This document shows positions 1,233 through 35,734 of a stretch of 64,000 bases of DNA, one piece after another. The number at the start of each line of letters is the position of its first letter. Position 1 is the first letter of the stretch. Both the position numbers and the translations under genes were made by a program. Under the pieces are notes generated by a model, which saw nothing but the letters and a program-made list of their open reading frames with translations, was not told the origin of the DNA and made no database searches. The stretch is taken from NCBI GenBank assembly GCA_021825585.1, contig JAKAGT010000009.1, positions 90,915 to 154,914 on the forward strand. Direction: 5' to 3'. The stretch is from Bacteroidota bacterium. Lineage in GTDB: Bacteria; Bacteroidota; Ignavibacteria; Kryptoniales; JAKASW01.

Positions 1233-1584
1233 GTTATAGACGTGCAAAACCAGATTTACTTGGAAGAGTGGGAGTGCCTTAGTTCTTCGAAATCAAATAT
1301 CCTGATCATGTCAATCGGTCCAAACGCATCGTCACTTCTCGTAATAAATATAATTCTTATTCGTCACATGTTCCCACCTCAGCACCACTCCTGACGTGAG
1401 GGAAGCATGTTGTCAATCTTCAGGATTCAAGAGATATCTCGTCCTTTCATCATTAAGCTGTCAGGTACGGAACGATATTCCGAAAAACAGCAGTGCAGCC
1501 AATCGCCAATCTCTTTCGTCGTGACCTGGAATTCCCATTTTTTATCATTTCCTTTATGAAATCACGCCTAAACGTTTTTATCTT

Positions 1585-3021: not shown

Positions 3022-3141
3022 AGATATTTCTCCGGCCATAGGCATGACCTGATTCTATCCTGATTGTCCACGCCATAGAAATTAGTCTTCCGTTCTTGTT
3101 TATTTCTCGGTTTGAATCGATCTTCAAAACAAAAAGAACAA

Positions 3142-15923: not shown

Positions 15924-17687
15924 TCAAGATAAGCTTCCCTCATAAAGGTCCGTGTATTGTTTGTTGAAGTTATACAATTCATCATGCTTTCCGCTAACTA
16001 TGATCTTTCCGTTGTCCATTAATACCATCTTGTCAACACTCGTTATGGACGATAGTCGGTGACTGATAATTATTGTGGTTTTGTTCTCCATGATTTTTTC
16101 TGTGGCATCCCTGATCAGGCTTTCAGACTGGAGATCAATTGATGATGTAGCTTCATCCAGTACAAGTATCTTCGGATCGAGCAAAAAAACCCTCGCAATC
16201 GAAATCATTTGTTTCTGTCCGCCAGACAGTTGAAAGCCTCTCTCGCCCACTATGGTGTTATAGCCATCGGGCAGGTTGCGGATAAAATTGTCTGCATATG
16301 ACGCTCTGGCAGCTTCGCGCATTTCTTCGTCGCTGGCTTCAAGATTCGCATACCTGATGTTTTCAGCTATAGTTCCACTGAAAACATACGTCTCCTGGGG
16401 CACTATCCCTATTAACCTCCTAAGATCAGTGAGAGAATATTCCCGTATATCTTTACCATCAAGACAGATCCTCCCGCCTTGTGGCTCGTACAACCTCAAT
16501 AGCAGGTAGCCCAAAGTCGTCTTGCCAGACCCGGTTCTGCCAACTATCCCGATTCTGTCGCCGGGCCCAATGTGCAGGCTGAGATGTGCTATTCGAAAGT
16601 TGGCATCTTCTCCTCGATAGCAGAAACTAACATCCTGAAAGAGTACGTCCCCTTTGAACTTATCAGTTGCGCCTACAGTCAGAAGATGGCCTGGGTCGCC
16701 CTCAGCTTGTTGATCCAGTATGTCATATATTCTATCAATCGAGACGATGGCTGACTGAAGATTAGTCAGATATCCAAAGAGCTGAGTCGAAGGGCTGTAC
16801 AGCAGACTTAAGTATCCCACGAATCCGACCAATTGACCGGTTGTCATCCTTCCCGTGATTATGAAATACCCCGCGATTGAAAGAATCGCTATCGGTGCGA
16901 GGCTTTGAACAAATCCGTTGGCTGAACCAGCATAAGTGGATAGGAGCCAATTCTTCTTCGTAAGTTCAATCGCAGCAATTGACTTATCATTGAATCTTGT
17001 GATTTCGTAGTCCTCTTTTCGATAGGCCTTGATGCTCATAACCCCGCTGAGCATTTCTTGTAAGAATCCGCCTACCTTTGACCATTCCTCTTTCCTTGCA
17101 TTATTCACTTTCCTTATTTTGTAGTTAAACAATTTCTGGCTGACCAGGTAGAACGGAATGATTGCAAGAGCGATTGCGGCCAGCGTTCCATTGATCAGGA
17201 AAATCAGAGTTATCCCGAAAATCAAACTCAATAAGCTCTGTACCACGTTCAACGATGAAGTCCCCAATATTGAAACTGCGTCTTCGACGTCTTGAGAAAC
17301 TCGAGAAATGAGGTACCCAGTTTGCTTATCCGAGTAGTAACTAAGTGGAACATGCAACAAATGATTGAACATTCTGGCGCGGAGGGATAGCACTGAATAC
17401 AATTGGAAATTGTTAAGGAAGAAATTCTGGATAAAGCTCGAGAAGGTCTTAAGGAGGATAATTGCTGCCCAAGCAGCGATCAAAACGAAGAACAACTTAG
17501 CATCTCTAGCGGCTAGTGCTTTGTCCACAACCAACATGCTTAGCCATGGCATTGGAAGAGTGAGCAATAGGGAAAAGAGCATAAAGAAACCAGCCAGAAG
17601 AAAGTCTCTTTTCCTGTCCTTAAGAAATTTGACGAAGTTTCTGATTTTTCCCAGCTGTTTACCGTCCAATACATATTCAAAAAACAT
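15924..17687 (-). CDS. ABC exporter, fused permease + ATPase (MsbA/peptide-exporter type, no C39 peptidase domain)
   Basis: Six-TM N-half. Walker A GRTGSGKTT, signature LSGGQKQMISIARV, Walker B ILVLDEATSSID, H-loop IIISHRL. It starts 9 nt after the TonB-receptor stop. Confidence 0.9.
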   Translation of the reverse strand: MFFEYVLDGKQLGKIRNFVKFLKDRKRDFLLAGFFMLFSLLLTLPMPWLSMLVVDKALAARDAKLFFVLIAAWAAIILLKTFSSFIQNFFLNNFQLYSVLSLRARMFNHLLHVPLSYYSDKQTGYLISRVSQDVEDAVSILGTSSLNVVQSLLSLIFGITLIFLINGTLAAIALAIIPFYLVSQKLFNYKIRKVNNARKEEWSKVGGFLQEMLSGVMSIKAYRKEDYEITRFNDKSIAAIELTKKNWLLSTYAGSANGFVQSLAPIAILSIAGYFIITGRMTTGQLVGFVGYLSLLYSPSTQLFGYLTNLQSAIVSIDRIYDILDQQAEGDPGHLLTVGATDKFKGDVLFQDVSFCYRGEDANFRIAHLSLHIGPGDRIGIVGRTGSGKTTLGYLLLRLYEPQGGRICLDGKDIREYSLTDLRRLIGIVPQETYVFSGTIAENIRYANLEASDEEMREAARASYADNFIRNLPDGYNTIVGERGFQLSGGQKQMISIARVFLLDPKILVLDEATSSIDLQSESLIRDATEKIMENKTTIIISHRLSSITSVDKMVLMDNGKIIVSGKHDELYNFNKQYTDLYEGSLS

Positions 17688-17696
17688 TATCCACTC

Positions 17697-20234
17697 CTAG
17701 AAGGAATAACTCACACCTAGCGTAGGAATTAGGCCGTAAAGCAAGTTAGCCCTTCTCATTGGCCTCCCGTTGGCGTCATAGGTGTAAGTGTACGACAGAA
17801 CGTTGCGCCTGTTGAACAGGTTCATCACATCAAGATAGATTTGTAGCGGCTTATGGAACAGAGAATAGCCTTTTGCAATTTTTAAATCAACTCTTTCATA
17901 CGGGGGGTAATGGCTGGCATTTTTATTCCCCGCAACCCACAAGTACATCATTGCAGTTGAATCATAATGGCTCACATAGGGAGTGTATGCATAGCCGCTT
18001 CCATAGAAGAATCTAACGTCCAAAGACCATTTGTTTCCCAAATCAGAAATCACGGCAAGGGAAAGAGTGTGTGTTTGATCTGTGTACCGCGGATAATAAC
18101 CTTCTTTGCTGTCGAGCAATTTTTCTCGCGCAACCAAATAACTGTAGCTCAACAACAAATCTGTGTTGCCCAATGTTTCGTTGTACATTAGATCCATACC
18201 TGTCGCATATCCCTTGGCGTCATTTTGCCTCGTGCCGTATGCCAATTCACCGTCCGAAAGTCTGATCGTTGGAATCATGCTCGAATAATCTTTATAGTAG
18301 AACTCGCATCTGAGATCCATACCTCCTTCAATTTTCTTTTCAAATCCCAGGATGTACTGCACTGCTTTTTCGAAGGCCGTGTTAGTATCAGAGGCGACTG
18401 AGGACCTTAGTTGTTTGTATGTGGGAGGTTCATAATAGATCCCCCACGCAGCACGGATTGTAACTCCGAATGGCCCGGCGTACGACAAACTTGTTCGCGG
18501 CGCAAACCTAGTTTCTTTGTCCATGTCGAAGTAATCTAACCTTATTCCTGCATTAAACATTAGATTGCTTCCTATCTGCGACGTTTGTTGAAAGTACGCT
18601 GCTAAACTGTATGTCGAAGCATTTGTTATCACGGTGTCGTTATATGTCGGATCGGGAGGATAAAGCATGGTTGTTGTATCGGGGAAAAGCGTCACGTTTG
18701 TGGCCAGTATCTGGACTCCGTGCATATTCGGCGCGTCGTCATACAGTATTTTCTTTAGGGTGAATCCCCCGTCGAAATCGAGAAATTGTGACGATTGGAA
18801 ATTCAAGTCCTGGTCAAGACAGATCGTTTTTATCGAGAGGTCATCGATCAAGTTTCTATTATTTGATTGGTATGACCAAAATTGGGGGAATCCGCTGTAT
18901 GTGAGGCTGGTGCTATCCATCAGAATCGCGTGCTCATGTTCGACTTCATTGTAATATGAGGCCGTAGTCAGGGAAAGCAATTTGTCCGACAGCATATTGC
19001 TGGACCTGATCGACACCAAAGAATTCGTATAATTTGCAAGGAAGCTGGAATTGTGTACGGTGGTCTGAGATACGAGCGTCTGCTGTCCATAATAGTTCCA
19101 GTAGTACCCCAACCGGCTATAGCTATTTGAAGGAGATTGGTTAGCGTTGTCTCTTGAGAAAATCACATCTACCTTCAGCTTGTTTAAGTCGCTCAGATTG
19201 TAGTCCATCTGTCCTTGAACATCGTAGTAGTCCAAACTTATAGCAGAAGAGACGCTTAACATTCGCATCAGATAGTCAAGGTAACTTTGCCTAACACCTA
19301 TGATAAACGAACCGTTGCGGCTAACAGGTCCCTCAACCAAAACCGAGAAATCTATTAAGCTCAGATCGACCTTACCTTGGTAATTGTTCCTGTCACCGTC
19401 TTTGTAATCAATCTTCATCATGGAGCTCAGAGCATCTCCGTATTTGACGCTGAACCCTCCCGAACTGAAATCGATACTCTTAACCATGTCAATGTTAAAA
19501 ATCGACATGCTCCCACCTGCCAGTTCTTTTAAATGATCCGGGTTATAAACCTCGACTCCGTTTATCAAAATCAGGTTCTCGTCGGATGTCCCTCCGCGCA
19601 CATTTATCTTATTGCTTACTTCGTTGTCAACGCTTACCCCGGGCAATAACTGCACTGCACGTAGAGGATCTTTCGTCAAACCTGCTAGATCTCTAATCTG
19701 TTGGTTTTTGATTTCAGCCGAGCTTATTCTTCTGGGGTTTGCTTGCTCTGCATAAACGCTTACCTCCTGAAGCAAGAACCCAACAGGGGTCAGTTTAACA
19801 ACTACGGTAGAATCGTTTTTGTGAACGTCGAGCCTTTCTGTCCGGTAGCCGATATACGAGACCAACAGTGTAACTTCTTCATCAGGTAAGGAAATTCTAA
19901 ACTCACCTCTCTCATTTGTTTGAATCACTTTCTTGAAATTCTGAACTGTAACGGTTGCATAGACCAAACTCTGATTTGTCGTGGCATCGATCACTCTACC
20001 ACTGAGAACATGACTTGCTCCTTTACATAACCCTGGATTCAGAAAAAACAAAATGGAAACGACGAACATTCCGCCGCTAAAGAGATATGAAAAGAGCAAT
20101 CCGAGAATTCTGTATTCCTCCGTGGTCTTATAAGATATTGAGGGGTTGATCACGTGTATTACGCGTTTCACAGTAGAACCCGTAAGATCCTGCATACACC
20201 TTTGAAGTTCATTTTTGAATAAGCAGATCCGCAA
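17697..20234 (-). CDS. TonB-dependent receptor with N-terminal carboxypeptidase-regulatory-like domain
   Basis: GRVIDATTNQSLVYATVTVQN...GEFRISLPDEEVTLLVSYIGYRTERLDV (CarbopepD_reg-like). Plug motifs are LLPGVSVDNEVSNKINVRGGTSDENLILINGVEVYNP, followed by a long beta-barrel with a C-terminal ...LGVSYSF. The true start is uncertain; an internal Met giving MFVVSILFFLNPGLCKGAS is possible. Confidence 0.85.
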   Translation of the reverse strand: MRICLFKNELQRCMQDLTGSTVKRVIHVINPSISYKTTEEYRILGLLFSYLFSGGMFVVSILFFLNPGLCKGASHVLSGRVIDATTNQSLVYATVTVQNFKKVIQTNERGEFRISLPDEEVTLLVSYIGYRTERLDVHKNDSTVVVKLTPVGFLLQEVSVYAEQANPRRISSAEIKNQQIRDLAGLTKDPLRAVQLLPGVSVDNEVSNKINVRGGTSDENLILINGVEVYNPDHLKELAGGSMSIFNIDMVKSIDFSSGGFSVKYGDALSSMMKIDYKDGDRNNYQGKVDLSLIDFSVLVEGPVSRNGSFIIGVRQSYLDYLMRMLSVSSAISLDYYDVQGQMDYNLSDLNKLKVDVIFSRDNANQSPSNSYSRLGYYWNYYGQQTLVSQTTVHNSSFLANYTNSLVSIRSSNMLSDKLLSLTTASYYNEVEHEHAILMDSTSLTYSGFPQFWSYQSNNRNLIDDLSIKTICLDQDLNFQSSQFLDFDGGFTLKKILYDDAPNMHGVQILATNVTLFPDTTTMLYPPDPTYNDTVITNASTYSLAAYFQQTSQIGSNLMFNAGIRLDYFDMDKETRFAPRTSLSYAGPFGVTIRAAWGIYYEPPTYKQLRSSVASDTNTAFEKAVQYILGFEKKIEGGMDLRCEFYYKDYSSMIPTIRLSDGELAYGTRQNDAKGYATGMDLMYNETLGNTDLLLSYSYLVAREKLLDSKEGYYPRYTDQTHTLSLAVISDLGNKWSLDVRFFYGSGYAYTPYVSHYDSTAMMYLWVAGNKNASHYPPYERVDLKIAKGYSLFHKPLQIYLDVMNLFNRRNVLSYTYTYDANGRPMRRANLLYGLIPTLGVSYSF

Positions 20235-20257: not shown

Positions 20258-20488
20258 TTATCCGAAATTGATATAGCCGCATTCGCATCCCTGGCATATG
20301 TTGCATGTGTCGCATGCTAAGCCAACGTTACCGCAGCTGCAGGAAACGTTAGCAGCTCCACAGACGTACGTTTGGCATGTGCAACCGCCGCCACCACCAG
20401 TATCACTATTACAAGTGTTGCAGCACGGTGTCGTTGTGAATGTCTCAAGATAACTTACGTCATCATTTAACAATTCAATGCGTTTCAT
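20258..20488 (-). CDS. Cys-rich precursor-like peptide (76 aa, 13 Cys)
   Basis: MKRIELLNDDVSYLETFTTTP-CCNTCNSDTGGGGGCTCQTYVCGAANVSCSCGNVGLACDTCNICQGCECGYINFG. A strong RBS AAGGAGGTGA lies upstream of the ATG (read from the rc of 20489-20510). It sits between the rSAM maturase and the TBDR/ABC genes on the same strand. Confidence 0.75.
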   Translation of the reverse strand: MKRIELLNDDVSYLETFTTTPCCNTCNSDTGGGGGCTCQTYVCGAANVSCSCGNVGLACDTCNICQGCECGYINFG

Positions 20489-20765: not shown

Positions 20766-22208
20766 TCATATTTGGCGCTCAGTTGGTATTTCCTTTCTTC
20801 CCCTTTTGTAAAAATGATAAAGGTTTTCGATTTCCGGTTTACTTGACTTAGCGATACTTGAATACACCATGATTGCTGTTTCAATAACGTGCTTAATCAA
20901 TTCACATCTCATGGGATTAGGAGTAGTCACGTCTTTGTAATAATCTTCGCTCACTGCGATGCAATCCCCGCCACAAAGAAACCTTGCCCAACACGAATTG
21001 CAAGGAACCCGAGAAAACACGTTTGTATTCACGTGTATTTCTTTTTCCCACCGTCGGTCGAAGGTTCCCGCCATAACATTTCCCATCCTGTAAGTACTAT
21101 TGACAAAGCGATGACAGGGGAAAATGTCACCGTTCGCTCCCACCGCTACATAGCCCCTTCCCGCTGCGCAGGAATAGAAATTCTTCCCATTCGCGTTCAG
21201 ATGCTTCAGGAACTTGATGATGTTACTATAACCAAAAAACTCATTTCGGGAAATCTTCCTCATCAGCTCATCTGCGATCAAGTCAATCCTATTTTCGAGG
21301 GCGCGATAATCCTCCGAGGATAGGAACCCTCTACCTGTTGTGCCTTCGGCAGTTTCAGTGTGGACAGAATAAAAACCCATAGCGAGAATATGCAGGATAT
21401 TATCAAAAGCCCTTTCAACTGAATTCGAGGTGATCGTCGTTCTCGCTGATGTTTGATCCTGCTTTGTCTTCCCGAGAAACAGAATGCTTTTCCCCTCAAC
21501 AGTCGGATACGATGGCCTTTTGTTCTTCAAGGGTCTGTTGACATTTTGCGTATCAGCGTCTCCATCTATACTGATTTGTATATTTATTCTCTCACGGTTA
21601 AAGTATTCAATTAGTTCTTCGTTAAGCAGGGTTCCATTTGTGGAAACTGAATAGCGGACCTCCTTATCTGCAGCTTTAGCTTTCTCATTTCCGTACAATA
21701 CCAACGCCTTCAAACCAACCATGTTTAACAATGGCTCTCCGCCGAAGAAGACCACGCCAACCCTTTTCGACTTTCCTGATTTTTCAATCAAGAAATCAAT
21801 GGTTTTCCTCCCCACTTCCGGTCTCATAAACCCTCTTTTCCCTCGGAAAGCACCCTGATCCGCGAAACAGTAGACGCATCGCATATTGCAATCTTGAGAT
21901 AAGATCAGGTCCATATTTCTTATTTCATATTCTGAATACTCAAAGGTGGGATCCTCAAACTCAAAAGGCTTTTCTGCGATAAGCCGTGATTCTTTCAGTT
22001 CAGTATAAGCGACCTCGATATCTTCCGCAGGGTAAGAATTTCTCAGCGCTGACAAGACTTCTTCCCTCTTTTTCAAGTTACTGGCGCCGAGGATTTGGAA
22101 GGCTAGTTCATCGACCCGAAATACTCGACACGTTTGCACGTCCAATAGCAGGTTCTTCCCGTTCTTCTTGAATAGGTGTAACTCCGGCAGGCAAGTTAGC
22201 TCATCCAC
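20766..22208 (-). CDS. Radical SAM / SPASM-domain peptide maturase (anSME-like) with N-terminal RRE-like segment
   Basis: CxxxCxxC at SQDCNMRCVYCF. Also GGEPLL, STNGTLL and ISIDG. The 7-Cys SPASM reads CAAGRGYVAVGANGDIFPCH...CNSCWARFLCGGDC...RCE. GTG start 22208 is preceded by AAGGAGG. It overlaps the upstream gene by 13 nt. Confidence 0.9.
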   Translation of the reverse strand: MDELTCLPELHLFKKNGKNLLLDVQTCRVFRVDELAFQILGASNLKKREEVLSALRNSYPAEDIEVAYTELKESRLIAEKPFEFEDPTFEYSEYEIRNMDLILSQDCNMRCVYCFADQGAFRGKRGFMRPEVGRKTIDFLIEKSGKSKRVGVVFFGGEPLLNMVGLKALVLYGNEKAKAADKEVRYSVSTNGTLLNEELIEYFNRERINIQISIDGDADTQNVNRPLKNKRPSYPTVEGKSILFLGKTKQDQTSARTTITSNSVERAFDNILHILAMGFYSVHTETAEGTTGRGFLSSEDYRALENRIDLIADELMRKISRNEFFGYSNIIKFLKHLNANGKNFYSCAAGRGYVAVGANGDIFPCHRFVNSTYRMGNVMAGTFDRRWEKEIHVNTNVFSRVPCNSCWARFLCGGDCIAVSEDYYKDVTTPNPMRCELIKHVIETAIMVYSSIAKSSKPEIENLYHFYKRGRKEIPTERQI

Positions 22209-24028
22209 AATACCTCCTTTAATTTTAAGGTCAGTAAGAGCAAATAATTGATTACCCTGACTGGAAAATTGAGAACAATTAAGAAGTGTTGCGAATTTAG
22301 TTCAAACTTTTGTGCCATAGCGAAATTCTTAACCGCATCCGAGAAGCTAAAATGATGCCTGGCCAGTTGCCGAACAAAGCTGAATCCATATTTTATGAGA
22401 AAGCTCAAACCCCAGGCCAAAATTGTATAGAGTGCGATAATCTTGGCGGCCGATTTTACCGGAAGACTTTTGGTCGGGATGAAATTCACCATGCTGTGAT
22501 TCTTAAAATGTGTTATCCTGCCAATTATTTCACTTGGCATAACCTCTTGGAAAAAGCCGTTGTCACCCTTTTCGTATATGAAACTGTTTCCCAGAAGCTT
22601 GATTCTTATGATCAGCCGGTGAGTTATGATCCTGTTGTTTCGTATGTAGGAAAAAATGTCGCCAGTTTTTAACTGGTTAGGATGCAAAAACTCGATTTTC
22701 AACTCTGTGCTCGATATAAACAAAGGAAACATGCTCTTGCCAACAGTAGACAAGACAACCGCATCTTTCGAGAGAGTATCCCCTTCATACTGAAACTGTG
22801 GGCTATGTCTTTTCAGAAAATCTATGTTCTTTTGCATAAGCGACCTAATTGCAGCATCCCTATCCGCGGATAGCAGCGCTGCTGCTTTAATGTTCCCTCT
22901 TATGTTGTCGCATCTTGTCTCAGGAATGCTTGCCGGACGGTGAAGATCATCCTCCCACTGAAGAATGCACCCACCACCACATATGGATATAGCCCAACAA
23001 GTCGTGCATTCTTTTCTGTCGTAAACCGCTGCTTTTGCAAATTGGTTCTGAATCGGCTTGTCATGGTCTGATTTTTCAATTGTCCCAGCCAGGTGCCTGG
23101 ACGACCTGATCAATCGGTGACACGGGAATATTTCCCCCTCTTTAGAAACAGCCCAGTACCATCTCCCTGCCCCGCAAGTAAAAGTCTTAGGAATGGAGGA
23201 GTTCAATGTTTCCGCATGACTTAGTATCTCAGTAATACTAAGTCCTAAACCGATACAATGGCCGTCATTCAAAATCTCGTTAAATAAATTACATTCCCCA
23301 TAACCAAACTGGATGAGCCTTATCCCTACCCGTCTTAATATATTGATGGTCTCCATTACCAAATTCTTTTGCATCCCCACATCTTCAATTCTGACACTAA
23401 CTACACGGTTAGAGGTTAATCGTCGCACAGCATCCGGTATTCTTCCCAATGCACCACGCAGATCGTCTCCGTACCTGAACAAGAGTTTCACTTCGTAGTT
23501 GTTCGACACAATAAAATCGGCCAATTGCCGGTCAACAAGTTCGATCGGGACTTGAAACAAAAACCGGTAGGAATGTTTTCTACTTCCTATCAATTCTTCA
23601 CAGAGGCGGTTCATTGAAGAAAGGATTGCCGGGTTCCTTAGGTTAAGAGTCAGATGAACCGCACGGCCAAATTGCGGCTCAAAGAAACCAACTGCTTTTT
23701 TGACAAGAGCAGTTGCACTTAAATCATTCTCAGGCAAATCCACATAAAGCGCGCTGACGAATAGAGGCTTCCATCTTATTTCGTCTTTCTTATTGATCCC
23801 GCCGAGGAACTCTTTGAGTTCATCTATGGCATCGTGCAACTCGCCAATATTGAATCTGCCTTCGAGGGTTGAGATTGCTCTATCTATATCCAAGGCCCCG
23901 CCTTCACTTAGATCCAGTAGTTCTTTAATTGCAGGGCTGAAACGAATCGTTGCAGGAAAGTCCGTCAGTATACCAACATTAACTTCTCTTGAGCCCGCGA
24001 TCTCGATATTGGGAATCTTAATCTTCAT
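22196..24028 (-). CDS. Pseudo-radical-SAM/SPASM protein fused to S26 (SipW/archaeal-type) signal-peptidase-like domain and C-terminal TM helices
   Basis: No CxxxCxxC anywhere in the 610 aa. The SPASM is intact: CGAGRWYWAVSKEGEIFPCH...CTTCWAISICGGGC...RCD (nt 22910-23176). The S26B-like block is VGKSMFPLF...LKTGDIFSY...RIITHRLI...IYEKGDNG (nt 22505-22759), followed by hydrophobic AAKIIALYTILAWGLSFLIKYGF and HFLIVLNFPVRVINYLLLLTL. Confidence 0.75.
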   Translation of the reverse strand: MKIKIPNIEIAGSREVNVGILTDFPATIRFSPAIKELLDLSEGGALDIDRAISTLEGRFNIGELHDAIDELKEFLGGINKKDEIRWKPLFVSALYVDLPENDLSATALVKKAVGFFEPQFGRAVHLTLNLRNPAILSSMNRLCEELIGSRKHSYRFLFQVPIELVDRQLADFIVSNNYEVKLLFRYGDDLRGALGRIPDAVRRLTSNRVVSVRIEDVGMQKNLVMETINILRRVGIRLIQFGYGECNLFNEILNDGHCIGLGLSITEILSHAETLNSSIPKTFTCGAGRWYWAVSKEGEIFPCHRLIRSSRHLAGTIEKSDHDKPIQNQFAKAAVYDRKECTTCWAISICGGGCILQWEDDLHRPASIPETRCDNIRGNIKAAALLSADRDAAIRSLMQKNIDFLKRHSPQFQYEGDTLSKDAVVLSTVGKSMFPLFISSTELKIEFLHPNQLKTGDIFSYIRNNRIITHRLIIRIKLLGNSFIYEKGDNGFFQEVMPSEIIGRITHFKNHSMVNFIPTKSLPVKSAAKIIALYTILAWGLSFLIKYGFSFVRQLARHHFSFSDAVKNFAMAQKFELNSQHFLIVLNFPVRVINYLLLLTLKLKEVLWMS

Positions 24029-24034
24029 TGTCTC

Positions 24035-26233
24035 TCAGAAATTGTCACACGGCTGGATGTAAGGGGTCTGCCTTACGTCCTGGTTTACGACACCAATTTT
24101 CCCAAACCGGCCTGCCACTGCCTCCTCAGCAAGCGTGCGGTAACGATCACAAAAGGATCTTTCGAATGTGCTTCTGCCGCTATCCAGGACCCTTTCCATG
24201 AAAAGACACCCGCCTGCACAGAGATTTATTAGCCAGCAATTACCGCACCGTGGTTTGCTCTTTACATCGTTCTCAACATATTCAATTTGCGATTTCAGCA
24301 ACCCGTCATCATTGCTTCCCATTGGGCTGATTCCCGCCTTTGCAAATAAGTGACAAGGATAGTATTTGCCGTCGGGAGAAATAACGACGTAGGATTTACC
24401 CGCATTGCAAAAATAATTGTACGGTTTATGGTCCATCAGCCTCCATTCAATTCCTCGAACAATGCCAATGTCCTTTCTGGGTGATTCGGCCGGAAGCAAC
24501 TCTTTGCCGAAGGGCTCTTCTGAACAAAACGGTTGAGTACATATTTGGAAATGATTAGATTGGGCCTCTCCAAAAGCTGGTGCCAAGTCTTTCAATAGTG
24601 CCTGATTTTCTGTCTGTGGAACAAGAAGGTTGATGACAAAACGTTTTTCATCTTCGCCCTCGAAATGGCTTCTAATTGATCTGAGGAGTTTTCCATAATC
24701 TCCATCTTTTGAAGTAAGCCCCGCACACAACGAGGCTGCATCAATATTTATACTGATACTTACGGTCTTAAATAACTTCCCTGAGAGTTTTTTTATGTAA
24801 TCACGGATCTTCACCAACAACTCTATTATCGATTCGTCTATAACATCTCCCAAATACAAATGGATAAACAAATCAGTTATGTAACCGGACCTTATAAACA
24901 AAAGATCAATCGCTTGCTTTGCTATCTCGAGCTGAATGACATCTGCATTACCGTTTCTATTATTCGATATTAGAATCCCTAGGCTTACCAGTACTTCTCC
25001 CCGGTTCTTGTCTTTTTCCCTTACAGATATCTCGTTCATCGATTTACCCGCTGATGACTGAACTTCTTTCAAAACCCCGATTCTTGTCAATTCGTTAAAC
25101 ATTTCAGTGATTTCATCAACACTCAATCCTAACTCTCTCTCCATGATATGAGAATCTTCCAAGGCTCTATGTCTTTCAAGAAATCGGACAAAATCGTACA
25201 TCCTCTGGTCTATCCTAGTCGCCAATTTGTGGTCGATTTGATAAAGAAAGAATTCAGCCCCCCTCTGAAACATGTGTATTTGCGAAAGGACTAAGCCCGG
25301 GTCAAATGTCTTTTCGATTGGAGAGAGTTGTGCTGACACGGAGCTTGTCAAAGGTTGCCTGCGATCTGTTTCAAGGAAATTTTCATTCTCTTTGATTTTC
25401 TTTTGAATGAAATTCTTTAATGCAAAACACTTAAGCTCCTCTGCCATGAGCACTGCCTTACTGTAATATTCGATGCTCTCGGAAAGGTGCTGTTCGATCA
25501 GGTCGCTTGCCTTCAGGTAGTTTTCAATCTGCTCCTGATCATCAGCTAAACCTAACCGGTCGTAAATCTTAAAAAGGAAATATGTATAGTTTTTGTTCGA
25601 AAAGTCTTCTCTCCAGTCCACCACATCGTCATACAGCTGGTATCCAATATGGTAATTACCCACCAACTCAGAGAAGGCCTCAATTTTTCCTTCTTCTTCT
25701 CCCGCGAGACATGCGCCTGCAGCAGAGATTTTCAATAAAGAAAACTTATGCCCGCAATTAATTAGATCCCTGTTTTCAAACCTTGCTACTTTCCCAAAGT
25801 GTAGTCGTTTTTCCCACAACGTCGCGACAACAAACTCGTTCAAGTATTTTTCGAAAAGAGCCCAGAAATAATCATTAGAGCGGAAAGCTCTCTGGTACTC
25901 TTTCATCCATTTATAATAGATGATGTTTGACACGAGGAGAGTTTCTGAAATTCTGGTCGGATCGCTTTCTTGCTGGTCTATGATCTTATCCTGCGCTAAT
26001 ATGTAGAGGGCTCCAAATAAATTGCCGAGAGAAAGTGCCCTTAGGATATTTAGGTCTATTTGTTTGGCAAACGACTCTGCGACCCAATAGGGGAAATCGA
26101 TTATTATATCCGGTTTAAGGGATATGAGTTTTCCTGAAGCGGTTGCGAAAACTCCGTCAAAGGCTAGCCTGTTCATTTCAATTCTGTACCGATCGCCAAC
26201 CAGTTTATTTTCATCACGAAGATTTATCATCAT
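24035..26233 (-). CDS. Three-part fusion: polyprenyl-synthase-like domain + RRE-like winged-helix segment + pseudo-radical-SAM/SPASM domain
   Basis: The N-domain pattern HKFSLLKISAAGACLAGEEEGKIEAFSELVGNYHIGYQLYDDVVDWRED matches the trans-IPPS KT...G.aFQ..DDxxD region, and the first motif is degenerate (ILAQDKIID). The middle segment RIDQRMYDFVRFLERHRALEDSHIMERELGLSVDEITEMFNELTRIGVLKE is PqqD/RRE-like. The C-terminal SPASM is CNAGKSYVVISPDGKYYPCH...CGNCWLINLCAGGC...FCD. There is no CxxxCxxC. I prefer start ATG 26233 (an ATGA overlap with the upstream stop) over the track start 26284. Confidence 0.7.
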   Translation of the reverse strand: MMINLRDENKLVGDRYRIEMNRLAFDGVFATASGKLISLKPDIIIDFPYWVAESFAKQIDLNILRALSLGNLFGALYILAQDKIIDQQESDPTRISETLLVSNIIYYKWMKEYQRAFRSNDYFWALFEKYLNEFVVATLWEKRLHFGKVARFENRDLINCGHKFSLLKISAAGACLAGEEEGKIEAFSELVGNYHIGYQLYDDVVDWREDFSNKNYTYFLFKIYDRLGLADDQEQIENYLKASDLIEQHLSESIEYYSKAVLMAEELKCFALKNFIQKKIKENENFLETDRRQPLTSSVSAQLSPIEKTFDPGLVLSQIHMFQRGAEFFLYQIDHKLATRIDQRMYDFVRFLERHRALEDSHIMERELGLSVDEITEMFNELTRIGVLKEVQSSAGKSMNEISVREKDKNRGEVLVSLGILISNNRNGNADVIQLEIAKQAIDLLFIRSGYITDLFIHLYLGDVIDESIIELLVKIRDYIKKLSGKLFKTVSISINIDAASLCAGLTSKDGDYGKLLRSIRSHFEGEDEKRFVINLLVPQTENQALLKDLAPAFGEAQSNHFQICTQPFCSEEPFGKELLPAESPRKDIGIVRGIEWRLMDHKPYNYFCNAGKSYVVISPDGKYYPCHLFAKAGISPMGSNDDGLLKSQIEYVENDVKSKPRCGNCWLINLCAGGCLFMERVLDSGRSTFERSFCDRYRTLAEEAVAGRFGKIGVVNQDVRQTPYIQPCDNF

Positions 26234-27195
26234 ATCAGATCCGTGGCAATATGCTTCTTGTACTTCTGCAGAGCTTCCAGACAAACTGCGGTGGTTATTT
26301 CCTCGGAACCGTCACCTCCAAAGGGATACAGTATTTCCATGGGCCAACATCCTCTGTCTCTGTCGCAACGGTCCATCAAATATTCTATCCCTCTTTCGAC
26401 ACATGTGCCGAATGCGGCACAGTCCATTAATGCTACAAGTGCAAATGCTGTCTCCAGGGTATTCCCCCACCCTCCGTTTTCATCCTGGACAAATCTTAAG
26501 TAGCGAACAATTGAGCCTCGTGCCTCTTGAAGCTCATCCGCTCTATCGACGGCGAATGCCCTGGAAACAAAACACGAAAATATTTGAGGTGAAAAGTACC
26601 ATCTTTGCGAGTTCTGCGTTTGAAGATCGTGAGACTCTCTGTTCAACCAATCGATCACTTCTTTTGTCAGAAAAGATTTATGCATCAAACTAAACAGCCA
26701 AAGGATATTGGCATTGACGGCCGCGTCGAAATCATTCTCCGAGATTGGTGAACCACCAACCCAGGTGCGGAATAGTTTTGTCACTTCATCCCTCTGGCCA
26801 AGTAGCTTTTCAGGGACCGCGAGATCGTTCATGACCCCTAGCTCATAAAGCACGGAAAGACAACACGACGTTGTATCCAGATCCAATGGCAGCTCTGAAC
26901 CGATTCCAAAGTACCTCCAATAGCTCTCTTCTTTGTTCTGAATAATAAACTCGATCGCTTTCTGCTTTATGCCGTTCAACCTGTTGGAATCGTCCAAGAA
27001 GGAAATTGAGTGGAGGACAAGAGCAGTTGGAAAAACTGTGCTACGGTAAGTTTTCATTAATTGGGAATTACTGACGAAAGAATAGTTTGCAATTTCCCCC
27101 CATGGCAGTTGATTGTCATAGATGAAATCTATCCCCTGATCAATCAATGCTTGGACGGTCTCAATCGATGCGCAACGATCACTGTTCCCAAACAC
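26230..27195 (-). CDS. Prenyltransferase / squalene-hopene-cyclase-repeat (alpha/alpha-toroid) protein
   Basis: QW-like repeat FVQDENGGWGNTLETAFALVALMD. LPLDLDTTSCCLSVL resembles the class II cyclase DxDDTA region, here as DxDT. GTG start 27195 is preceded by AGGAGA. Confidence 0.7.
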   Translation of the reverse strand: MFGNSDRCASIETVQALIDQGIDFIYDNQLPWGEIANYSFVSNSQLMKTYRSTVFPTALVLHSISFLDDSNRLNGIKQKAIEFIIQNKEESYWRYFGIGSELPLDLDTTSCCLSVLYELGVMNDLAVPEKLLGQRDEVTKLFRTWVGGSPISENDFDAAVNANILWLFSLMHKSFLTKEVIDWLNRESHDLQTQNSQRWYFSPQIFSCFVSRAFAVDRADELQEARGSIVRYLRFVQDENGGWGNTLETAFALVALMDCAAFGTCVERGIEYLMDRCDRDRGCWPMEILYPFGGDGSEEITTAVCLEALQKYKKHIATDLI

Positions 27196-27337: not shown

Positions 27338-27973
27338 TCAAGCCGTGAAAGTGTCACGAAAATAAATCGCAAATCTTATCAGTTCAGACAGCCCGCTCAA
27401 GTGCGTTTTTTCTATTATGTTTGTTCGATGACAGTCAACCGTTCTCTTGCTGATATAAAGTCGCAAACCTATTTCTTTACTTGAGTATCCTAAGCCAATA
27501 AGTCCAAGGATTTCCTTTTCTCTAGCTGACAAAGTCTGAATTTTATCATTCCATGGCCTATTCTTACCCGTTTCATCAGTCTTAGATTCATCGCATCGTT
27601 GGTTGCAGAGTGCCCATATCGGTCTCGGTATTGATTCTGGTCGCCCGCTAATCCGAAGTCCTCTTCTACAGAGAACAGTTACCCGTTTGTCGTCAACTTC
27701 AGGACAGCCTCCATAAAGACACAATTCAGATAAGACTAAGAGCTGAGCGAAATCGTATGGGAGGATCCTATTGATGGTGTTCACGATACTCTGATAATTC
27801 CGGTCGTATGATAAATTCAGGAAAACAACTTCATTCCGGTCTTTGTTAAGGTCGCTGACAGAGCGTAGAACTTTTATTACACGATATCCGTTTGCCACCA
27901 AGTATCCCCTTATTGCCTCCGCAACTATTTCATTCTCATCGATAAGAATTATGCTTATGTTTTTCCTCGACAC
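27338..27973 (-). CDS. LuxR/FixJ-type transcription regulator with atypical receiver-like N-domain
   Basis: C-terminal HTH LSAREKEILGLIGLGYSSKEIGLRLYISKRTVDCHRTNIIEKTHL. The N-terminal ISIILIDENEIVAEAIRGYL is receiver-like. The expected phospho-Asp position after beta-3 reads VVFLNLS. Confidence 0.8.
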   Translation of the reverse strand: MSRKNISIILIDENEIVAEAIRGYLVANGYRVIKVLRSVSDLNKDRNEVVFLNLSYDRNYQSIVNTINRILPYDFAQLLVLSELCLYGGCPEVDDKRVTVLCRRGLRISGRPESIPRPIWALCNQRCDESKTDETGKNRPWNDKIQTLSAREKEILGLIGLGYSSKEIGLRLYISKRTVDCHRTNIIEKTHLSGLSELIRFAIYFRDTFTA

Positions 27974-29364: not shown

Positions 29365-29955
29365 ATGGTTACCAGCGATTGGAAGCTTCTCGACTCGTAT
29401 CTGCAGCATTGCGGTTACGAGAGACACCTTGGTGCCTTAAGCCTTAAAGCCTACGGGATTGATCTCAGGCAATTCCTCCTCTTCATAAGCGGAAGATCGG
29501 ATTTCCATCAGGTTGACAAAGAGACACTCAAGGCTTACTTGAAACACCTGTTCGGCGTTCCACTCAGAGAGTCAAGCGTAAAAAGGAAGATTACCTGCCT
29601 CAAGGGTTTCTTCGCATTCCTCGAAGCTGAGCAAGTCATTGAGGAAAGTCCCTTCCACAAAATGAAATTCTCGATCAAGATCCCGAGGAGATTGCCTGAA
29701 GTCATGAACATAAGGGATGTGACAGAGCTTATCACCCTTGCGAAGCAGAACCTTGAAAAGAGGAAATCTACGACTCGCGAAAAGATTGATCTATCATCCT
29801 GCGTTGAACACGGAGATCTTGTGGCTTTTCAGGATCTCATCATTATTGAGCTTCTTTTTGCAACCGGCATGAGGGTGAAAGAACTATCAAGCCTCAATGT
29901 GGGCGACATAGACCTCGTCAGAAGATTAAACGATATAGGCTCCTGCACGGGATGA
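29365..29955 (+). pseudogene. Tyrosine recombinase (XerC/D-like integrase), 3'-truncated
   Basis: N-terminal SAM-like core-binding domain (LSLKAYGIDLRQFLLFI..., VKRKITCLKGFFAFLEAEQVI). The catalytic domain begins (ELLFATGMRVKELSSLNVGDIDL, containing the first catalytic Arg) and then ends after about 20 more codons. The H-R-Y part is missing. Confidence 0.7.
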
Positions 29956-30390: not shown

Positions 30391-32458
30391 ATCCTGTTAG
30401 CCTATTGAACCCTCGTCAATCCCGACTCCTGCCGGCAGGAGTCGGGAGAGGTTTTCCCTCATACGGCTTTCCTGATACACATCATATGCTGGCGAAAGCC
30501 GACATGTCCGATAGTCAGAGTATAAACCGAGAGTGCCATAGATATAATCCGAGGAGATTCTTCCTCCCCAGCCATATCCACGTCTCCCACGATGCCTTTG
30601 GATCACCCGTCTCACACGCTTGTTCACAAAGTTCCGGACATCTTTCAGTGTGTCACTACTGTGCCCAAGTCGGAAGTATCCAACCCAACCACGGAGAAAC
30701 CGATTGACATCCTGCACTTGGTCTTTCACTCGCTTTGCTCTCGCGTGGTGTACCAATTGACGGATTCTCTCCCGGCACCGTTGCTGACTTTTCGGACTCG
30801 GCGACACAAGTATCAACCGCGTCCCTGTTTTCCTGCTCCTCACATTCGAGAACCGGAAGCCAAGAAACTCCACGTTTGCTCCCTCTTCCAAACGAAGCCT
30901 CCGTGTCTTCTCTTTGTTCAGCGTCAGCCCTAAGCGTTCGAGGTAGTGTTCAAGTAGGGCTATCCCTGTATCCAGTTCTCTTTGTGCAAGTAGTATCATA
31001 TCGTCCGCGTAGCGTACCAAGTGGATTGACCCTTTGCTTATCGCTCCGAGTCCGCTCCGCTTGAATATCTGGTCGATAGGATTCAGGTATATGTTTGCCA
31101 ATAATGGACTTATTACTCCTCCCTGTGGTGTCCCTCGCTTGCTCTGCTTGTGCTGTCCATCTTCGATATATCCAGAGCTCAGCCAGAGCTTGATTACGTG
31201 GAGTATCTGCTTATCCACTATTCTCCGCGCTATCAGCTTCATCAGCTTATGGTGTTCGACCGTGTCAAAGTACTTCTCAAGGTCTACATCATAAACTTCA
31301 GCACATCCCCAGTTCAGGTACTTGCCCGTCTCTGACGAGGTCTCGCCTAAAGGCGGATATATTTCCCGTACCGCATCGTGCGCACCCTCGTTCGGTCTGA
31401 ACCCGTGACTACTTTCGGCAAAGTCTGCCTCAAATATAGGTTCGAGTATTAACAAGAATGTAGTCTGCACTATGCGATCCCGAACAATAGGAATCCCCAA
31501 TGGTCGTTTCTTGCCATTGGCTTTCGGGATATATACTCGCCTTACTGGCTGCGGTTTGTACCGCCGTTGCTTCATCTCAAGCTGGAGTCCGGCAAGATAT
31601 TCCTCAAGACCTCGTTCCTCTATCATCGCGCAGGTCTCTCCGTCTATCCCGCTCGTTCCACCGTTGGCTTTCACCTTGTCGTAGACTCCGTCTGAGTCTA
31701 CGGACTCTGACGAGCGGTAGGCTTCTGCCAGCACATCCGTGCGATATGTTTTGTCGTACAGACTGTAGAATCTGAACTTCGGCTCTGCTTTCGCCTTCTC
31801 ATACAGCTTCCTCTGTAACTCCTGGAGATTTCCGGTACTTGTTAGCTCTCGCAATGTACTCTCCTTCTGCGCCATAGGCGCATCAGCTTCTGGCTGAGTT
31901 CCTTTGGTTGCTGTGTATCAGTAGAGACCCTTCCCTCCGCTCTGCTTTCACAGAACATCCTAAGTACTACGGTCTCATCCGCCATTGCCGCTCCAACATT
32001 ATATCTGTTATATGATGCGGCATGCCGTGAACGGCACCTGCCGGCTTCCTCCGCTTTCGTTTCCTTATACGGAAGCTCTTCTCTCACCTTCTCGGTGGGG
32101 CCGGCGAGGACTTCCCGAGTTCCCTTCCTCACTTTCTGACCATGTCGCCGCTCACACCCCGGAGACGCCGTGTACCGCTCATCCTCTGTACTTGGAACAC
32201 AGTTCTGACTTCGCCTATAAAATAGAGGCTCGTCCATCTCTGTCATCTTTACGAGGCTACCTTCGCGTTCACTCACGTTGCAACCTGGTCATTCGCGTTG
32301 CGTCCTTTCAGACTACGTTGTCGAGTCGCTTAGTATGAGTCCGTTTCCAAACTCATACCGACCCCTCGCTATGGCGCCAAAGGCGCCATCCGGAACCTTG
32401 CAGGGAGATCGCCTCTCCCTCCTCATCCAGATAGTTAAGGAACAGTTTAGCTCGGCAC
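30391..32458 (-). mobile_element. Group II intron (ribozyme + IEP); boundaries approximate
   Basis: On the minus strand, GTGCCGAGC begins at 32458, immediately after the TGA (32461-32459) of the upstream gene. About 583 nt of structured, ORF-poor sequence precedes the RT ORF. The candidate 3' end ...GGCTAACAGGAT (AY terminus) is at about 30391, with a 10-11-bp hairpin CCCGACTCCTG/CAGGAGTCGGG just upstream. Total length is about 2.07 kb. Confidence 0.7.
30397..31875 (-). CDS. Group II intron reverse transcriptase/maturase (no endonuclease domain)
   Basis: RT motifs RVYIPKANGKKRPLGIPIVRDRIVQ, DLEKYFDTVEH, GTPQGGVISPLLANIYL, VRYADDMILL, LTLNKEKT and FLGFRF. Domain X is RFLRGWVGYFRLGHS. There is no HNH/En region. 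Confidence 0.9.
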   Translation of the reverse strand: MAQKESTLRELTSTGNLQELQRKLYEKAKAEPKFRFYSLYDKTYRTDVLAEAYRSSESVDSDGVYDKVKANGGTSGIDGETCAMIEERGLEEYLAGLQLEMKQRRYKPQPVRRVYIPKANGKKRPLGIPIVRDRIVQTTFLLILEPIFEADFAESSHGFRPNEGAHDAVREIYPPLGETSSETGKYLNWGCAEVYDVDLEKYFDTVEHHKLMKLIARRIVDKQILHVIKLWLSSGYIEDGQHKQSKRGTPQGGVISPLLANIYLNPIDQIFKRSGLGAISKGSIHLVRYADDMILLAQRELDTGIALLEHYLERLGLTLNKEKTRRLRLEEGANVEFLGFRFSNVRSRKTGTRLILVSPSPKSQQRCRERIRQLVHHARAKRVKDQVQDVNRFLRGWVGYFRLGHSSDTLKDVRNFVNKRVRRVIQRHRGRRGYGWGGRISSDYIYGTLGLYSDYRTCRLSPAYDVYQESRMRENLSRLLPAGVGIDEGSIG

Positions 32459-35400: not shown

Positions 35401-35734
35401 GGAACGATGCGTCGCATGCCACCGCGACCCCGCCATCCCCGATGAGGAAGAAACCGAATTCCTTGATCGTCTTTCCACCCAACGGGAGCTGCCATTCGGC
35501 GGCATTCGTACCGGAAGTATTCCCCGAAACAATCTGGACGTTTTGCCCGAACGTGACATCCGCCGGGAGTGGATTGTAAAGTTCGATGAACTCGCCCGTA
35601 TTGAACTGTGTGGAATTTCCGCCCATCGGGGCGACCTGAGAAATCACCACATGCCTGGCCCCCTGCGCGAGGAGCAAACCGCTCAGGAAACACTCGACTA
35701 ATAATGCAACGTATAGTTTCTTTGCCAATCCCAT
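32459..35734 (-). CDS. Large T9SS-sorted extracellular protein: lamin-tail domain + Ig/FN3-like modules + two PLD-type HKD domains
   Basis: Signal peptide MGLAKKLYVALLVECFLSGLLLAQG. LTD signature is VISQVAPMGG...GEFIELYNP. An FN3/PAP-N-like segment reads AVVRYGRTSDYSDS...TVYHYRV. HKD motifs are LMHNKFAVFD and YLHHKYAIIDGE...GSHNWT. The CTD is LDQNYPNPFNPTTSIGF...GVYFYRL...KKMILTK. Confidence 0.8.
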   Translation of the reverse strand: MGLAKKLYVALLVECFLSGLLLAQGARHVVISQVAPMGGNSTQFNTGEFIELYNPLPADVTFGQNVQIVSGNTSGTNAAEWQLPLGGKTIKEFGFFLIGDGGVAVACDASFPASRNLSNSNVRSCVQLRDGSTVIDAFGWDPSGTILSPEGIAYLPLTVTADGKSFQRKSGEDAAFDDNLGNAWDTGDNSKDFFEQTAPRKIAHNSASPVEVNPFSTPGSGIGSAQISPTIVSAGSTLPYTIKIESKGTDTIAVIVVIVPSCFTWQTNSSSVSLGGRSLSAATCTVSQDSVIITGAAVASADTAVIGLSSLTAPDSVTHASFILKTAVAGAEPSAIQDNLTVSVTKYAPIITVHVNDSKGVPAEPYQVGAPVKVSGIITADFDPSRTDICIQDGTAGIEVYKSIRFADYEVGDSVAVSGKISQYAGLTEIDPDSVRILSNGNFAPEPLTLTAAEVNASFETDNFSEPNEGRLVRVNHVSFVSSSVNGGTITDATGTAIVYSKSAYSYPTGSFDIVGIVKQHRTSAPYTSGYEIDPRSQADIIVSSGPAFVVQPFEEDILRNSVTIYFTTATPSKAVVRYGRTSDYSDSVIVSVEDTSHIVVLPGLWPATVYHYRVGVTDGTGTNYSGDGIFSTASPEGSTDSMNAYFNYPTDSSVAVGERATSTDISQKFIDRINSAKYSIDVALYSLSGTVGSSIADALINAKSHGVKVRVIVENDNSGTSAMNMLRSNVSFITDAFDQINAGAGLMHNKFAVFDFRDTTSAADDWVWTGSWNATDPGTNSDAQNAIEIQDKALANAYTMEFNEMWGSGSDTPDASASHFGARKTDNTPHRFMIDGSPVELYFSPSDRTTTHIGAELSSAVRSISISMLTFTRDDLAQILINKKSSGKKVRVILDNNTDIGNEFKSLVDAGVDVHLKGAAITGYLHHKYAIIDGEMPSADQAVITGSHNWTSAAETSNNENTLIIHSNRIANLYMQEFKARYVEAGGSEDIILGIERAGNGIPVTLGLDQNYPNPFNPTTSIGFNVRSSGFVSLRVYDVLGREVATLVDGYESAGAHWVQFNGSRFASGVYFYRLTAPGVVQVKKMILTK

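Follow-up and report, generated by a model that had tools for sequence, protein, structure and literature searches.

What might a protein do whose N-terminal part resembles an enzyme of isoprenoid biosynthesis and whose C-terminal part resembles a peptide maturase stripped of its radical chemistry? The question is raised by an open reading frame (ORF) at 24035..26284 in a 64,000-nucleotide stretch of DNA from a Bacteroidota bacterium of the order Kryptoniales (assembly GCA_021825585.1, contig JAKAGT010000009.1, positions 90,915 to 154,914), hereafter called the window; the features of its gene cluster described below all lie on the minus strand. An earlier note, made from the sequence alone, had described the product of this target ORF as a prenyl-synthase-like domain joined to a recognition element (RRE) of the kind found in the maturation of ribosomally synthesized and posttranslationally modified peptides (RiPPs) and to a pseudo-radical S-adenosylmethionine (rSAM)/SPASM domain, and had proposed a link between isoprenoid and peptide chemistry. 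Judging from sequence features and from analogy with known enzymes, we lean toward reading the target as a composite RiPP maturase, in which the N-terminal domain would transfer a prenyl group to a peptide and the C-terminal half would act as a scaffold, in concert with a translationally coupled terpene cyclase and a true rSAM enzyme that would form thioethers.

The target ORF comprises 749 amino acids (aa) when read from a TTG codon. Its first ATG, codon 18 (M18) at 26233, and the upstream gene's stop codon overlap in the sequence ATGA, and the 732-aa product that starts at this ATG is identical to a database protein (P0001). This ATG is likely the true start, so that residue numbers in the TTG frame, which we use throughout and for which the numbers of the earlier note are correct, lie 17 above the likely mature numbering. 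Close homologues of the protein are rare (5 proteins among 5.8 billion). The nearest orthologue, with 58% identity, is found in the metagenome-assembled genome OY969888 (locus L001, 9756-11962; the same as L005), where a one-base frameshift within the N-terminal domain splits it into 81 aa and 653 aa, reflecting either a long-read assembly error or a pseudogene. Among the curated NCBIfam models, TIGR04085 recognizes the SPASM part alone (42.8 bits against a cutoff of 27), and the PapB, SCIFF, and QhpD maturase models match partially, through their C-terminal ends. The Pfam polyprenyl_synt model (PF00348) gave no match to the target protein above its gathering threshold, and the assignment to the isoprenyl diphosphate synthases (IPPSs) was therefore examined by profile and fold instead.

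The N-terminal domain spans residues 18 to ~310 (25355..26233) and is a putative peptide prenyltransferase (P) domain with a trans-IPPS fold. An AlphaFold2 (AF2) model of residues 18 to 315, built from an alignment of 75 stand-alone family members, is all-helical with a mean predicted local distance difference test (pLDDT) score of 91.5. Its best 50 Foldseek matches in the PDB are all trans-IPPS-fold proteins (TM scores of 0.6 to 0.73), rather than proteins of some other helical fold. Most of these 50 are prenyl diphosphate synthases, namely hexaprenyl, octaprenyl, solanesyl, geranylgeranyl (GGPPS), and farnesyl (FPPS) diphosphate synthases; the others are prenyltransferases whose acceptor is not isopentenyl diphosphate (IPP), such as Ord1 and MoeN5, and, from bifunctional terpene synthases, their prenyltransferase domains. 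PDB searches with a single sequence or with five sequences returned sub-threshold GGPPS matches alone (E values of 0.13 to 1.5), and significance was reached solely with the profile of 75 sequences, which matched 5h9d (5.6e-9), component 2 of heptaprenyl synthase (7.5e-9), and component B of hexaprenyl synthase (5.4e-8) over the whole domain and gave an E value of 0.015 for Ord1.

In this profile alignment, the first motif rich in aspartate (FARM), the KT region, and the second motif rich in aspartate (SARM) of solved prenyl diphosphate synthases are in register with motifs of the N-domain: the family's "liqDkviD" falls on "LVHDDVID," "GKaallK" on "NRKTALL," "alQllDDlkDW" on "SFQIIDDVLDF," and "DlengnyTy" on "DLLNGHITLP." In the target, the FARM equivalent is D99-K-I-I-D103 (25976..25990), with no RRG after it, the KT equivalent is H179-K180-FSLLK185 (HKFSLLK; 25730..25750), and the SARM equivalent is GYQLYDDVVDWRED at residues 214 to 227 (G214-YQLYD219-D220-VVD223-WRED227; 25604..25645), which bears the family signature QxxDDxxDWxxD. 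Judged by the alignment register, the two Asp motifs are each placed at a long helix's C-terminal end, which is where IPPSs have theirs. The earlier note had read an IPPS pattern with a KT region and a DDxxD motif into residues ~60 to 300, preceded by a degenerate DKxxD motif lacking RRG. The motifs are present where it placed them, the Mg-binding first and last FARM aspartates and the SARM are aligned with those of solved synthases, and its motif assignment is thus correct. As far as profile and model can tell, the N-domain is a remote homologue of the trans-prenyl diphosphate synthases.

Does such a distant homologue still keep what catalysis needs? The N-domain profile finds 1504 representatives in a library clustered at 50% identity, 74 of them with E values below 1e-30, and the most conserved columns of this family are the two Asp motifs and the KT lysines. 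The conservation and architecture counts given here refer to the 152 best representatives. Near-invariant residues include D99 (149/152) and D103 (152/152) of the FARM, K180 (137/152) and K185 (145/152) of the KT region, Q216 (141/152), D219 (148/152), D220 (146/152), and D223 (150/152) of the SARM, and the adjacent W224 (148/152) and D227 (151/152), and every family-invariant residue is present in the window protein. Position 100, within the FARM, is variable (K in 44, R in 19, and D in 18). No equivalent of the region I motif GGKRxR, which serves IPP diphosphate binding, or of the RRG after the FARM could be found among these representatives; the stretch aligned to region I is unconserved except for P65. 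PF00348 matched just 1 of 68 relatives (E value of 8.5e-4).

In FPPS-type enzymes, the allylic diphosphate is held by Mg2+ ions whose ligands are the first and last Asp of the FARM and the first Asp of the SARM, while the basic motifs GGKRxR and RRG bind IPP. The N-domain family thus keeps the residues that ionize the donor and has lost those that bind IPP, a pattern that most likely points to prenyl transfer to the precursor peptide instead of to IPP; by its motifs, the domain looks like a prenyl-transferring enzyme with an acceptor other than IPP. A genuine chain-elongating synthase that supplies the donor to another enzyme of the cluster would explain why medium- and long-chain prenyl diphosphate synthases top the matches in both sequence and fold and why the SARM and KT region are intact. 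We nevertheless consider it very unlikely, since both basic motifs are absent family-wide, which argues against chain elongation, and PF00348 does not match the target. Moreover, no other candidate prenyltransferase was detected in the cluster by Pfam or NCBIfam, and the RRE fused to the domain suggests that its substrate is a peptide.

What, then, is the role of the C-terminal half? A full-length model of the target has moderate confidence (pLDDT of 74.9; predicted template modeling score, pTM, of 0.49). Its best Foldseek matches are structures of the maturase CteB (5why and 5wgg), with an E value of 2e-11 over ~460 columns that take in nearly all of CteB; among rSAM enzymes, anSME, SuiB, and ChlB come next, interleaved with prenyl diphosphate synthase matches to the N-domain. 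Within this CteB-wide match, residues 331 to 407 (25064..25294) are predicted to fold as beta-beta-beta(-beta)-alpha-alpha-alpha, the topology of an RRE, and align weakly to the N terminus of the cluster's true rSAM enzyme. Residues 434 to 583 (24536..24985) form a degenerate rSAM barrel, predicted in the full-length model as alternating strand-helix units and recognizable from its beta/alpha repeats and from alignment to relatives; the SPASM region follows. The latter (24149..24409) holds a complete set of seven cysteines, C626, C644, C680, C683, C689, C693, and C712, spaced as Cx17C ... Cx2Cx5Cx3C ... C, which are supported by TIGR04085 and by the CteB alignment and are invariant or nearly so in the subfamily.

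Three relatives with the same N-domain keep an intact rSAM half, with CNFNCIYC (P0013), CNLKCVYC (P0015), and CNLRCVYC (P0023), each together with FGGEPL. Aligned to them, the CNxxCxYC site of the target reads ILISNNRN and then lacks 14 residues, and YLGDVID stands at the FGGEPL site, so that the GGE SAM-binding motif is lost, and the CX3CX2C motif (CxxxCxxC) occurs nowhere in the protein. These three are the sole members that keep CX3CX2C among the 18 representatives joining an N-domain to an rSAM/SPASM-like half. Both the sequence and the model indicate that the C-terminal half of the target is a whole retired maturase of the CteB/SCIFF type, made up of an RRE, a dead rSAM barrel, and an intact SPASM domain; with CX3CX2C and GGE gone, no radical chemistry is expected from it. 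The earlier note's description of this half, with an RRE-like segment at residues ~335 to 408, a pseudo-rSAM domain, and a complete 7-Cys SPASM at 626 to 712, agrees with these results. A further motif lies at the very C terminus, C746-D-N-F (24038..24049). In an alignment of relatives, the SPASM-fused subfamily keeps the tail P...C746-D-N-F in the form C-D-x-aromatic, which might serve for docking or supply an eighth Fe-S ligand.

The gene directly upstream (26230..27195), which shares the ATGA overlap with the target, encodes a 321-aa protein that we identify as a single-domain, beta-only class II terpene cyclase similar to MstE and to the drimenol synthase AsDMS. By itself the protein gave weak squalene-cyclase matches in Pfam and NCBIfam. 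The profile of its family matched the single-domain cyclases 8pak (361 aa; E value of 1e-54) and 8paj (9e-51), squalene-hopene cyclase (5e-43), and, over the full length, MstE (5e-34), and it matched the beta subunit of RabGGTase at 1e-7; a literature search for the PDB codes 8PAK and 8PAJ returned nothing relevant. Two other identities for this toroid, a LanC protein or a protein-prenyltransferase beta subunit, both Zn-dependent thiol alkylators, were rejected because conserved Cys/His ligands are missing, and the second also because class II cyclases score far better than RabGGTase beta. The window protein alone aligns to the beta domain of AsDMS at 2.2e-6, with ELPLDLDTTS on NFPDDLDTTS. Its motif D105-L-D107-T-T (26869..26883) places D107 on D323 of AsDMS, the middle Asp of the DXDT general-acid motif, which protonates the terminal C=C bond (PMC12232559). 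MstE functions with DxD rather than DxDD (PMC12324236). Within the cyclase family, the motif GGWxY...PxDxD(D/S/T) is invariant (D105 in 34/34 members and D107 in 32/34), and the QW motif QDENGGWG is present. From these features we infer an alpha/alpha barrel of the beta-domain type with QW repeats and no gamma domain, and the cyclase looks catalytically competent. If so, an isoprenoid chain would be needed as its substrate.

The intact cyclase bears on whether the whole target might be a noncatalytic scaffold or chaperone, in which the IPPS-like and rSAM-like parts, serving the true rSAM enzyme and the cyclase, keep hold of the peptide or tether the complex to a polyprenyl lipid. The rSAM part is demonstrably dead, the FARM is degenerate (DKxxD without RRG), Pfam polyprenyl_synt does not match, and inactive small subunits do exist in the heteromeric hexa- and heptaprenyl synthases, whose catalytic subunits are the best matches of the N-domain. 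Even so, in the 152 representatives, divergent as they are, the three Mg2+-ligating aspartates and the KT lysines hardly vary, which argues for retained catalysis, and the adjoining class II cyclase needs a prenylated substrate. On balance, a purely scaffolding role for the entire protein seems improbable to us, and prenyl transfer by the N-domain is the reading we carry forward.

Is the association of these modules peculiar to the window? The most frequent architecture of the family is the N-domain alone (90), followed by the N-domain with a C-terminal toroid (42), the N-domain with a (pseudo)rSAM/SPASM half (14), and a toroid followed by both the N-domain and the (pseudo)rSAM/SPASM half (4), which reproduces the gene order of the window in one chain; the toroid precedes an N-domain alone in 3. 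The earlier note had raised the question of how often its architecture occurs, and these counts answer it. According to Pfam and NCBIfam, 44 to 45 of 68 long members contain squalene-cyclase domains and 16 of 68 contain SPASM. An rSAM/SPASM gene shares the locus with an N-domain gene in ~17 of 26 distinct genome or metagenome loci, mostly as the next gene on the same strand, and these loci come from Acidobacteriota, Armatimonadota, Bacteroidota, Chloroflexota, Ktedonobacteria, Clostridium, Symbiobacteriaceae, Eisenbacteria, and Methanotrichaceae. The cyclase and the N-domain form one functional unit tied to rSAM RiPP clusters. In current annotation, a RefSeq family member is called "hypothetical protein" by NCBI and the UniRef name is "squalene cyclase C-terminal domain-containing protein."

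A Pfam census of 59 neighbor genes in related loci found ABC transporters, M50 and Rce1-like peptidases, and kinases, and no recurring prenyl-diphosphate synthase. Two tandem N-domain genes, one of them with a cyclase, occupy 375-4324 of locus L012 with no rSAM gene nearby, meaning that the prenyltransferase-cyclase pair can occur without rSAM. In loci L002 (6114-8131) and L003, an M50-type membrane metalloprotease and a geranylgeranyl-reductase-like flavoprotein are encoded directly downstream of an N-domain-cyclase fusion, and the flavoprotein is a further isoprenoid link.

The same survey speaks to the possibility that the N-domain and toroid make a small-molecule terpene synthase of combined class I and class II type, with its location in RiPP clusters being incidental. 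The alpha-plus-beta domain combination does recall bifunctional terpene synthases, and two family members give weak Terpene_syn_C_2 matches. We regard the idea as highly improbable, however, given that, in many phyla, the domain repeatedly has an rSAM/SPASM gene and precursors with leaders as neighbors, that 18 representatives carry it in one chain with RRE/SPASM modules, and that its fold is nearer to IPPSs than to terpene cyclases.

If a peptide is prenylated, which residue accepts the prenyl group? By sequence inspection, the window encodes a Cys-rich precursor of 76 aa (20258..20488) with the leader MKRIELLNDDVSYLETFT and a core that contains 13 Cys, no Trp, and a conserved QTYVCG. Precursors of its subfamily conserve IELLNxDVxYLETFT, PCCN, a Gly run, C-x-C-(D/Q)-T-Y-V-C-G, and a C-terminal aromatic residue. 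More widely, small ORFs between the genes of related loci share, across phyla, the leader LxLNxxDLDxEELExRLEL followed by Cys-rich cores, and most of these precursors, including those beside N-domain-toroid proteins, have 1 or 2 Trp in a short core. The precursor in L012 has one Trp and zero Cys. In L024, a separate lineage with five paralogous precursors, Trp is missing and (S/T)-Y-V-C stands where others have D-C-W. NCBIfam assigned none of eight precursors to a curated precursor family and showed a weak CefA-like similarity in the core. Tandem arrays of 3 to 6 paralogous precursors were observed in L016, L017, L018, L023, L024, and L025, and the precursor cores of Ktedonosporobacter end in Trp. 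Since Trp is lacking in seven of eight precursors of the window subfamily and in those of L024, and TYVC and (S/T)YVC, respectively, are kept, we propose the conserved Tyr of TYVC, in place of the Trp of relatives, as the residue that is most likely to be the acceptor, going by these sequence patterns.

The 13 cysteines of the core invite another proposal, that the IPPS-like domain S-prenylates at least one of them in a bacterial analogue of CaaX prenylation. Thiols are good nucleophiles toward allylic cations, and Rce1-like genes of the CAAX-protease family lie near two related loci, although Rce1-like proteins are also common as bacteriocin-immunity genes. In CteB-type enzymes the auxiliary cluster contacts a substrate Cys (CteB structure, PDB 5wgg), and the fused SPASM of the target could therefore present a Cys. 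On the other hand, it is the true rSAM thioether enzyme that would be expected to act on the Cys residues, and the L012 precursor, with its Trp and without any Cys, shows that Cys is not the general acceptor of the family. Furthermore, the characterized peptide prenyltransferases with the IPPS fold, described as trans-isoprenyl-diphosphate-synthase (trans-IDS)-like (ComQ, PalQ, and ChrPC), all target Trp (PMC13290415). S-Prenylation thus appears unlikely to us. In order of the weight we give them, the rivals to a composite prenylating maturase are Cys S-prenylation, the scaffolding pseudoenzyme, the chain-elongating synthase, and the peptide-independent terpene synthase.

For the composite maturase, we envisage the following sequence. 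The RRE of the target, which would bind the leader, and perhaps its SPASM clusters as well, would hold the peptide; the SPASM cysteines would still carry auxiliary Fe-S clusters, making the C-terminal half a substrate-holding scaffold. The N-domain would ionize a prenyl diphosphate and alkylate an aromatic or possibly a thiol side chain of the precursor, after which the coupled cyclase would cyclize the attached prenyl chain, protonating its terminal double bond. The separate intact rSAM/SPASM enzyme would form thioether cross-links among the precursor cysteines, and the SPASM-peptidase protein, ABC exporter, and TonB receptor of the cluster would process and move the product. Folds, motifs, gene fusions, synteny, and precursor patterns are observed; from them we infer that a prenyl group is transferred, that the C-terminal half is a scaffold, in what order the steps run, and which residue is the acceptor. 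A more specific version is offered tentatively, as possible rather than probable: a retired rSAM scaffold, with its RRE on the leader and its SPASM Fe-S clusters on the Cys-rich core, together with prenylation of a non-Trp residue (the TYVC Tyr or a Cys) and a separate cyclase, would yield a thioether-cross-linked peptide bearing a cyclic terpenoid.

Several points weigh against the composite maturase. Seven of eight subfamily precursors, that of the window included, lack Trp, the sole acceptor known for the enzyme class. The second FARM Asp is replaced by Lys and the RRG arginines are missing, so diphosphate binding could be weaker. No gene for prenyl-diphosphate supply is present in the cluster, the inter-domain confidence of the full-length model is low (pTM of 0.49), and membership of the target in the family of ChrPC, a known prenyltransferase-cyclase maturase, is putative, being suggested by architecture and published description. 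As for the isoprenoid-peptide link proposed in the earlier note, it is strengthened by the adjacent competent-looking cyclase, by the fusions in relatives, and by the ChrPC precedent; its Cys S-prenylation variant gains no specific support, given the Trp targets of known enzymes and the L012 precursor, and nothing was found in favor of an isoprenoid-derived cofactor, which it had also suggested.

The remaining genes of the cluster are syntenic. Four other contigs repeat the order regulator, cyclase, target, SPASM-peptidase, true rSAM enzyme, precursor(s), TonB receptor, and ABC exporter. Downstream of the target, 22196..24028 encodes a second SPASM-only protein of 610 aa, syntenic in four other loci, with TIGR04085 (49 bits) at residues 285 to 361, a signal-peptidase-I-like segment (TIGR02228, E value of 1.6e-6) at residues 421 to 519, and C-terminal hydrophobic helices; it lacks CX3CX2C and is possibly a membrane-bound leader peptidase. 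The intact rSAM/SPASM maturase (CNMRCVYC; 20766..22208) belongs, by Pfam and NCBIfam, to the SCIFF/PapB/CteB-like thioether type, and its gene overlaps the end of the preceding gene in 3 of the 4 other syntenic contigs. A TonB-dependent receptor (17697..20234) and an ABC exporter with a transmembrane domain and an ATPase (15924..17687) follow, both recognized by Pfam and synteny. L001, L034, and L035 contain receptor and exporter alike; L033 has just the exporter, right after which its contig stops. An outer-membrane receptor within a RiPP operon is unusual. Upstream of the operon lies a gene for a LuxR/GerE-type regulator (27338..27973), supported by Pfam, NCBIfam, and synteny.

Beyond the cluster, a group II intron lies just upstream at 30397-32398 on the minus strand, with an ORF at 30397-31875 that contains RVT_1 and GIIM and an Rfam match (RF02005) at 32147-32398, and a short integrase-like ORF stands beside it on the plus strand (29365-29955). 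Four flanking ORFs (13079-14119, 32459-35734, 35916-37148, and 42766-43887) end in type IX secretion sorting domains (Por_Secre_tail), which, along with the best genome match, an uncultured Bacteroidetes MAG, put the window within the FCB group.

Why does the locus matter? To our knowledge, reports of terpenoid-modified ribosomal peptides date back no further than 2024, and only a handful of enzymes have been characterized. The domain family of the target is large, with its 1504 representatives spread over bacteria and methanogenic archaea, and bears no functional name in the annotations seen. The locus represents a distinct subtype of it, with a prenyltransferase-like domain joined to a dead rSAM/SPASM half, a Trp-free Cys-rich precursor, and a working thioether-forming rSAM enzyme in the operon. 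If the proposed mechanism is true, peptide prenyltransferases would have a broader range of acceptors than is known, a concrete role would emerge for SPASM-only and pseudo-rSAM proteins, common yet unexplained in RiPP clusters, and a route would be opened to genetically encoded peptides bearing cyclic terpene groups. Prenylation of a residue other than Trp, if true, would provide the first non-Trp acceptor for the enzyme class and the first RiPP to unite ranthipeptide-type and terpenoid chemistry.

How does this system compare with known ones? The C-terminal 430 residues of the target share the RRE-barrel-SPASM layout of CteB, SCIFF, and PapB maturases and keep the 7-Cys SPASM, but CX3CX2C and GGE are lost and an IPPS-like domain is fused in front. 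Like the target, the TIGR04119 CXXX-repeat maturase and SPASM-only proteins combine a SPASM domain without a radical-SAM cluster and a Cys-rich RiPP cluster, but TIGR04119 matches the target at 22 bits, far below its cutoff of 150, and the architectures differ overall. The partner cyclase resembles MstE and the AsDMS beta domain in size (~320 to 360 aa), in its QW repeats, and in a DxD(T/D) acid motif in register, whereas identity is low and it presumably acts on a prenylated peptide and not on a meroterpenoid or farnesyl diphosphate. The target resembles GGPPS and the medium- and long-chain trans-prenyl diphosphate synthases in its fold, its KT region, its FQxxDDxxD motif, and where the first and last aspartates of the FARM stand; it differs from them in the lack of GGKRxR, RRG, and a PF00348 match, in the Lys at the second FARM position, and in an identity of ~12 to 16%.

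Comparable, too, are the peptide tryptophan prenyltransferases ComQ, PalQ, and StheQ, all-helical members of the IPPS superfamily that transfer C10 to C20 prenyl groups to a ribosomal peptide instead of IPP, although they have neither a fused RRE/SPASM nor a cyclase partner. ComQ-type enzymes keep the FARM and have a pseudo-SARM without the metal site, and the target family shows the reverse, with an intact SARM and a FARM reduced to DxxxD. A Gln just upstream of the second Asp motif is common to ComQ, PalQ, and ChrPC (PMC13290415), and Q216 of the target fits this description.

The closest precedent is ChrPC. As summarized in a review, ribosomal peptides with polycyclic isoprenoid groups are produced by fused prenyltransferase-cyclase maturases (Hubrich et al., Chem 2024, per PMC13290415); in that summary, the "trans-IDS-like" P domain of ChrPC prenylates an internal Trp of a RiPP with C10 to C20 donors, and its C domain, which resembles MstE, cyclizes the prenyl group afterwards. 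Compared by architecture and by this description, both systems pair a trans-IDS-like domain with an MstE-like cyclase and are encoded with a ribosomal precursor, and the N-domain-toroid proteins of the family have the architecture of ChrPC itself. In the window, however, a gene of its own, translationally coupled, encodes the cyclase; the prenyltransferase-like domain is joined in one chain with an RRE, a dead rSAM barrel, and SPASM; the precursor lacks the Trp that serves ChrPC as acceptor; and the cluster adds a true thioether-type rSAM enzyme. A full-text literature search found no paper describing an IPPS-like domain fused to rSAM/SPASM. What is new with respect to ChrPC-type pathways is the fusion of a prenyltransferase-like domain to a dead rSAM/SPASM half, the proposed scaffold, together with Trp-free precursors that keep TYVC.

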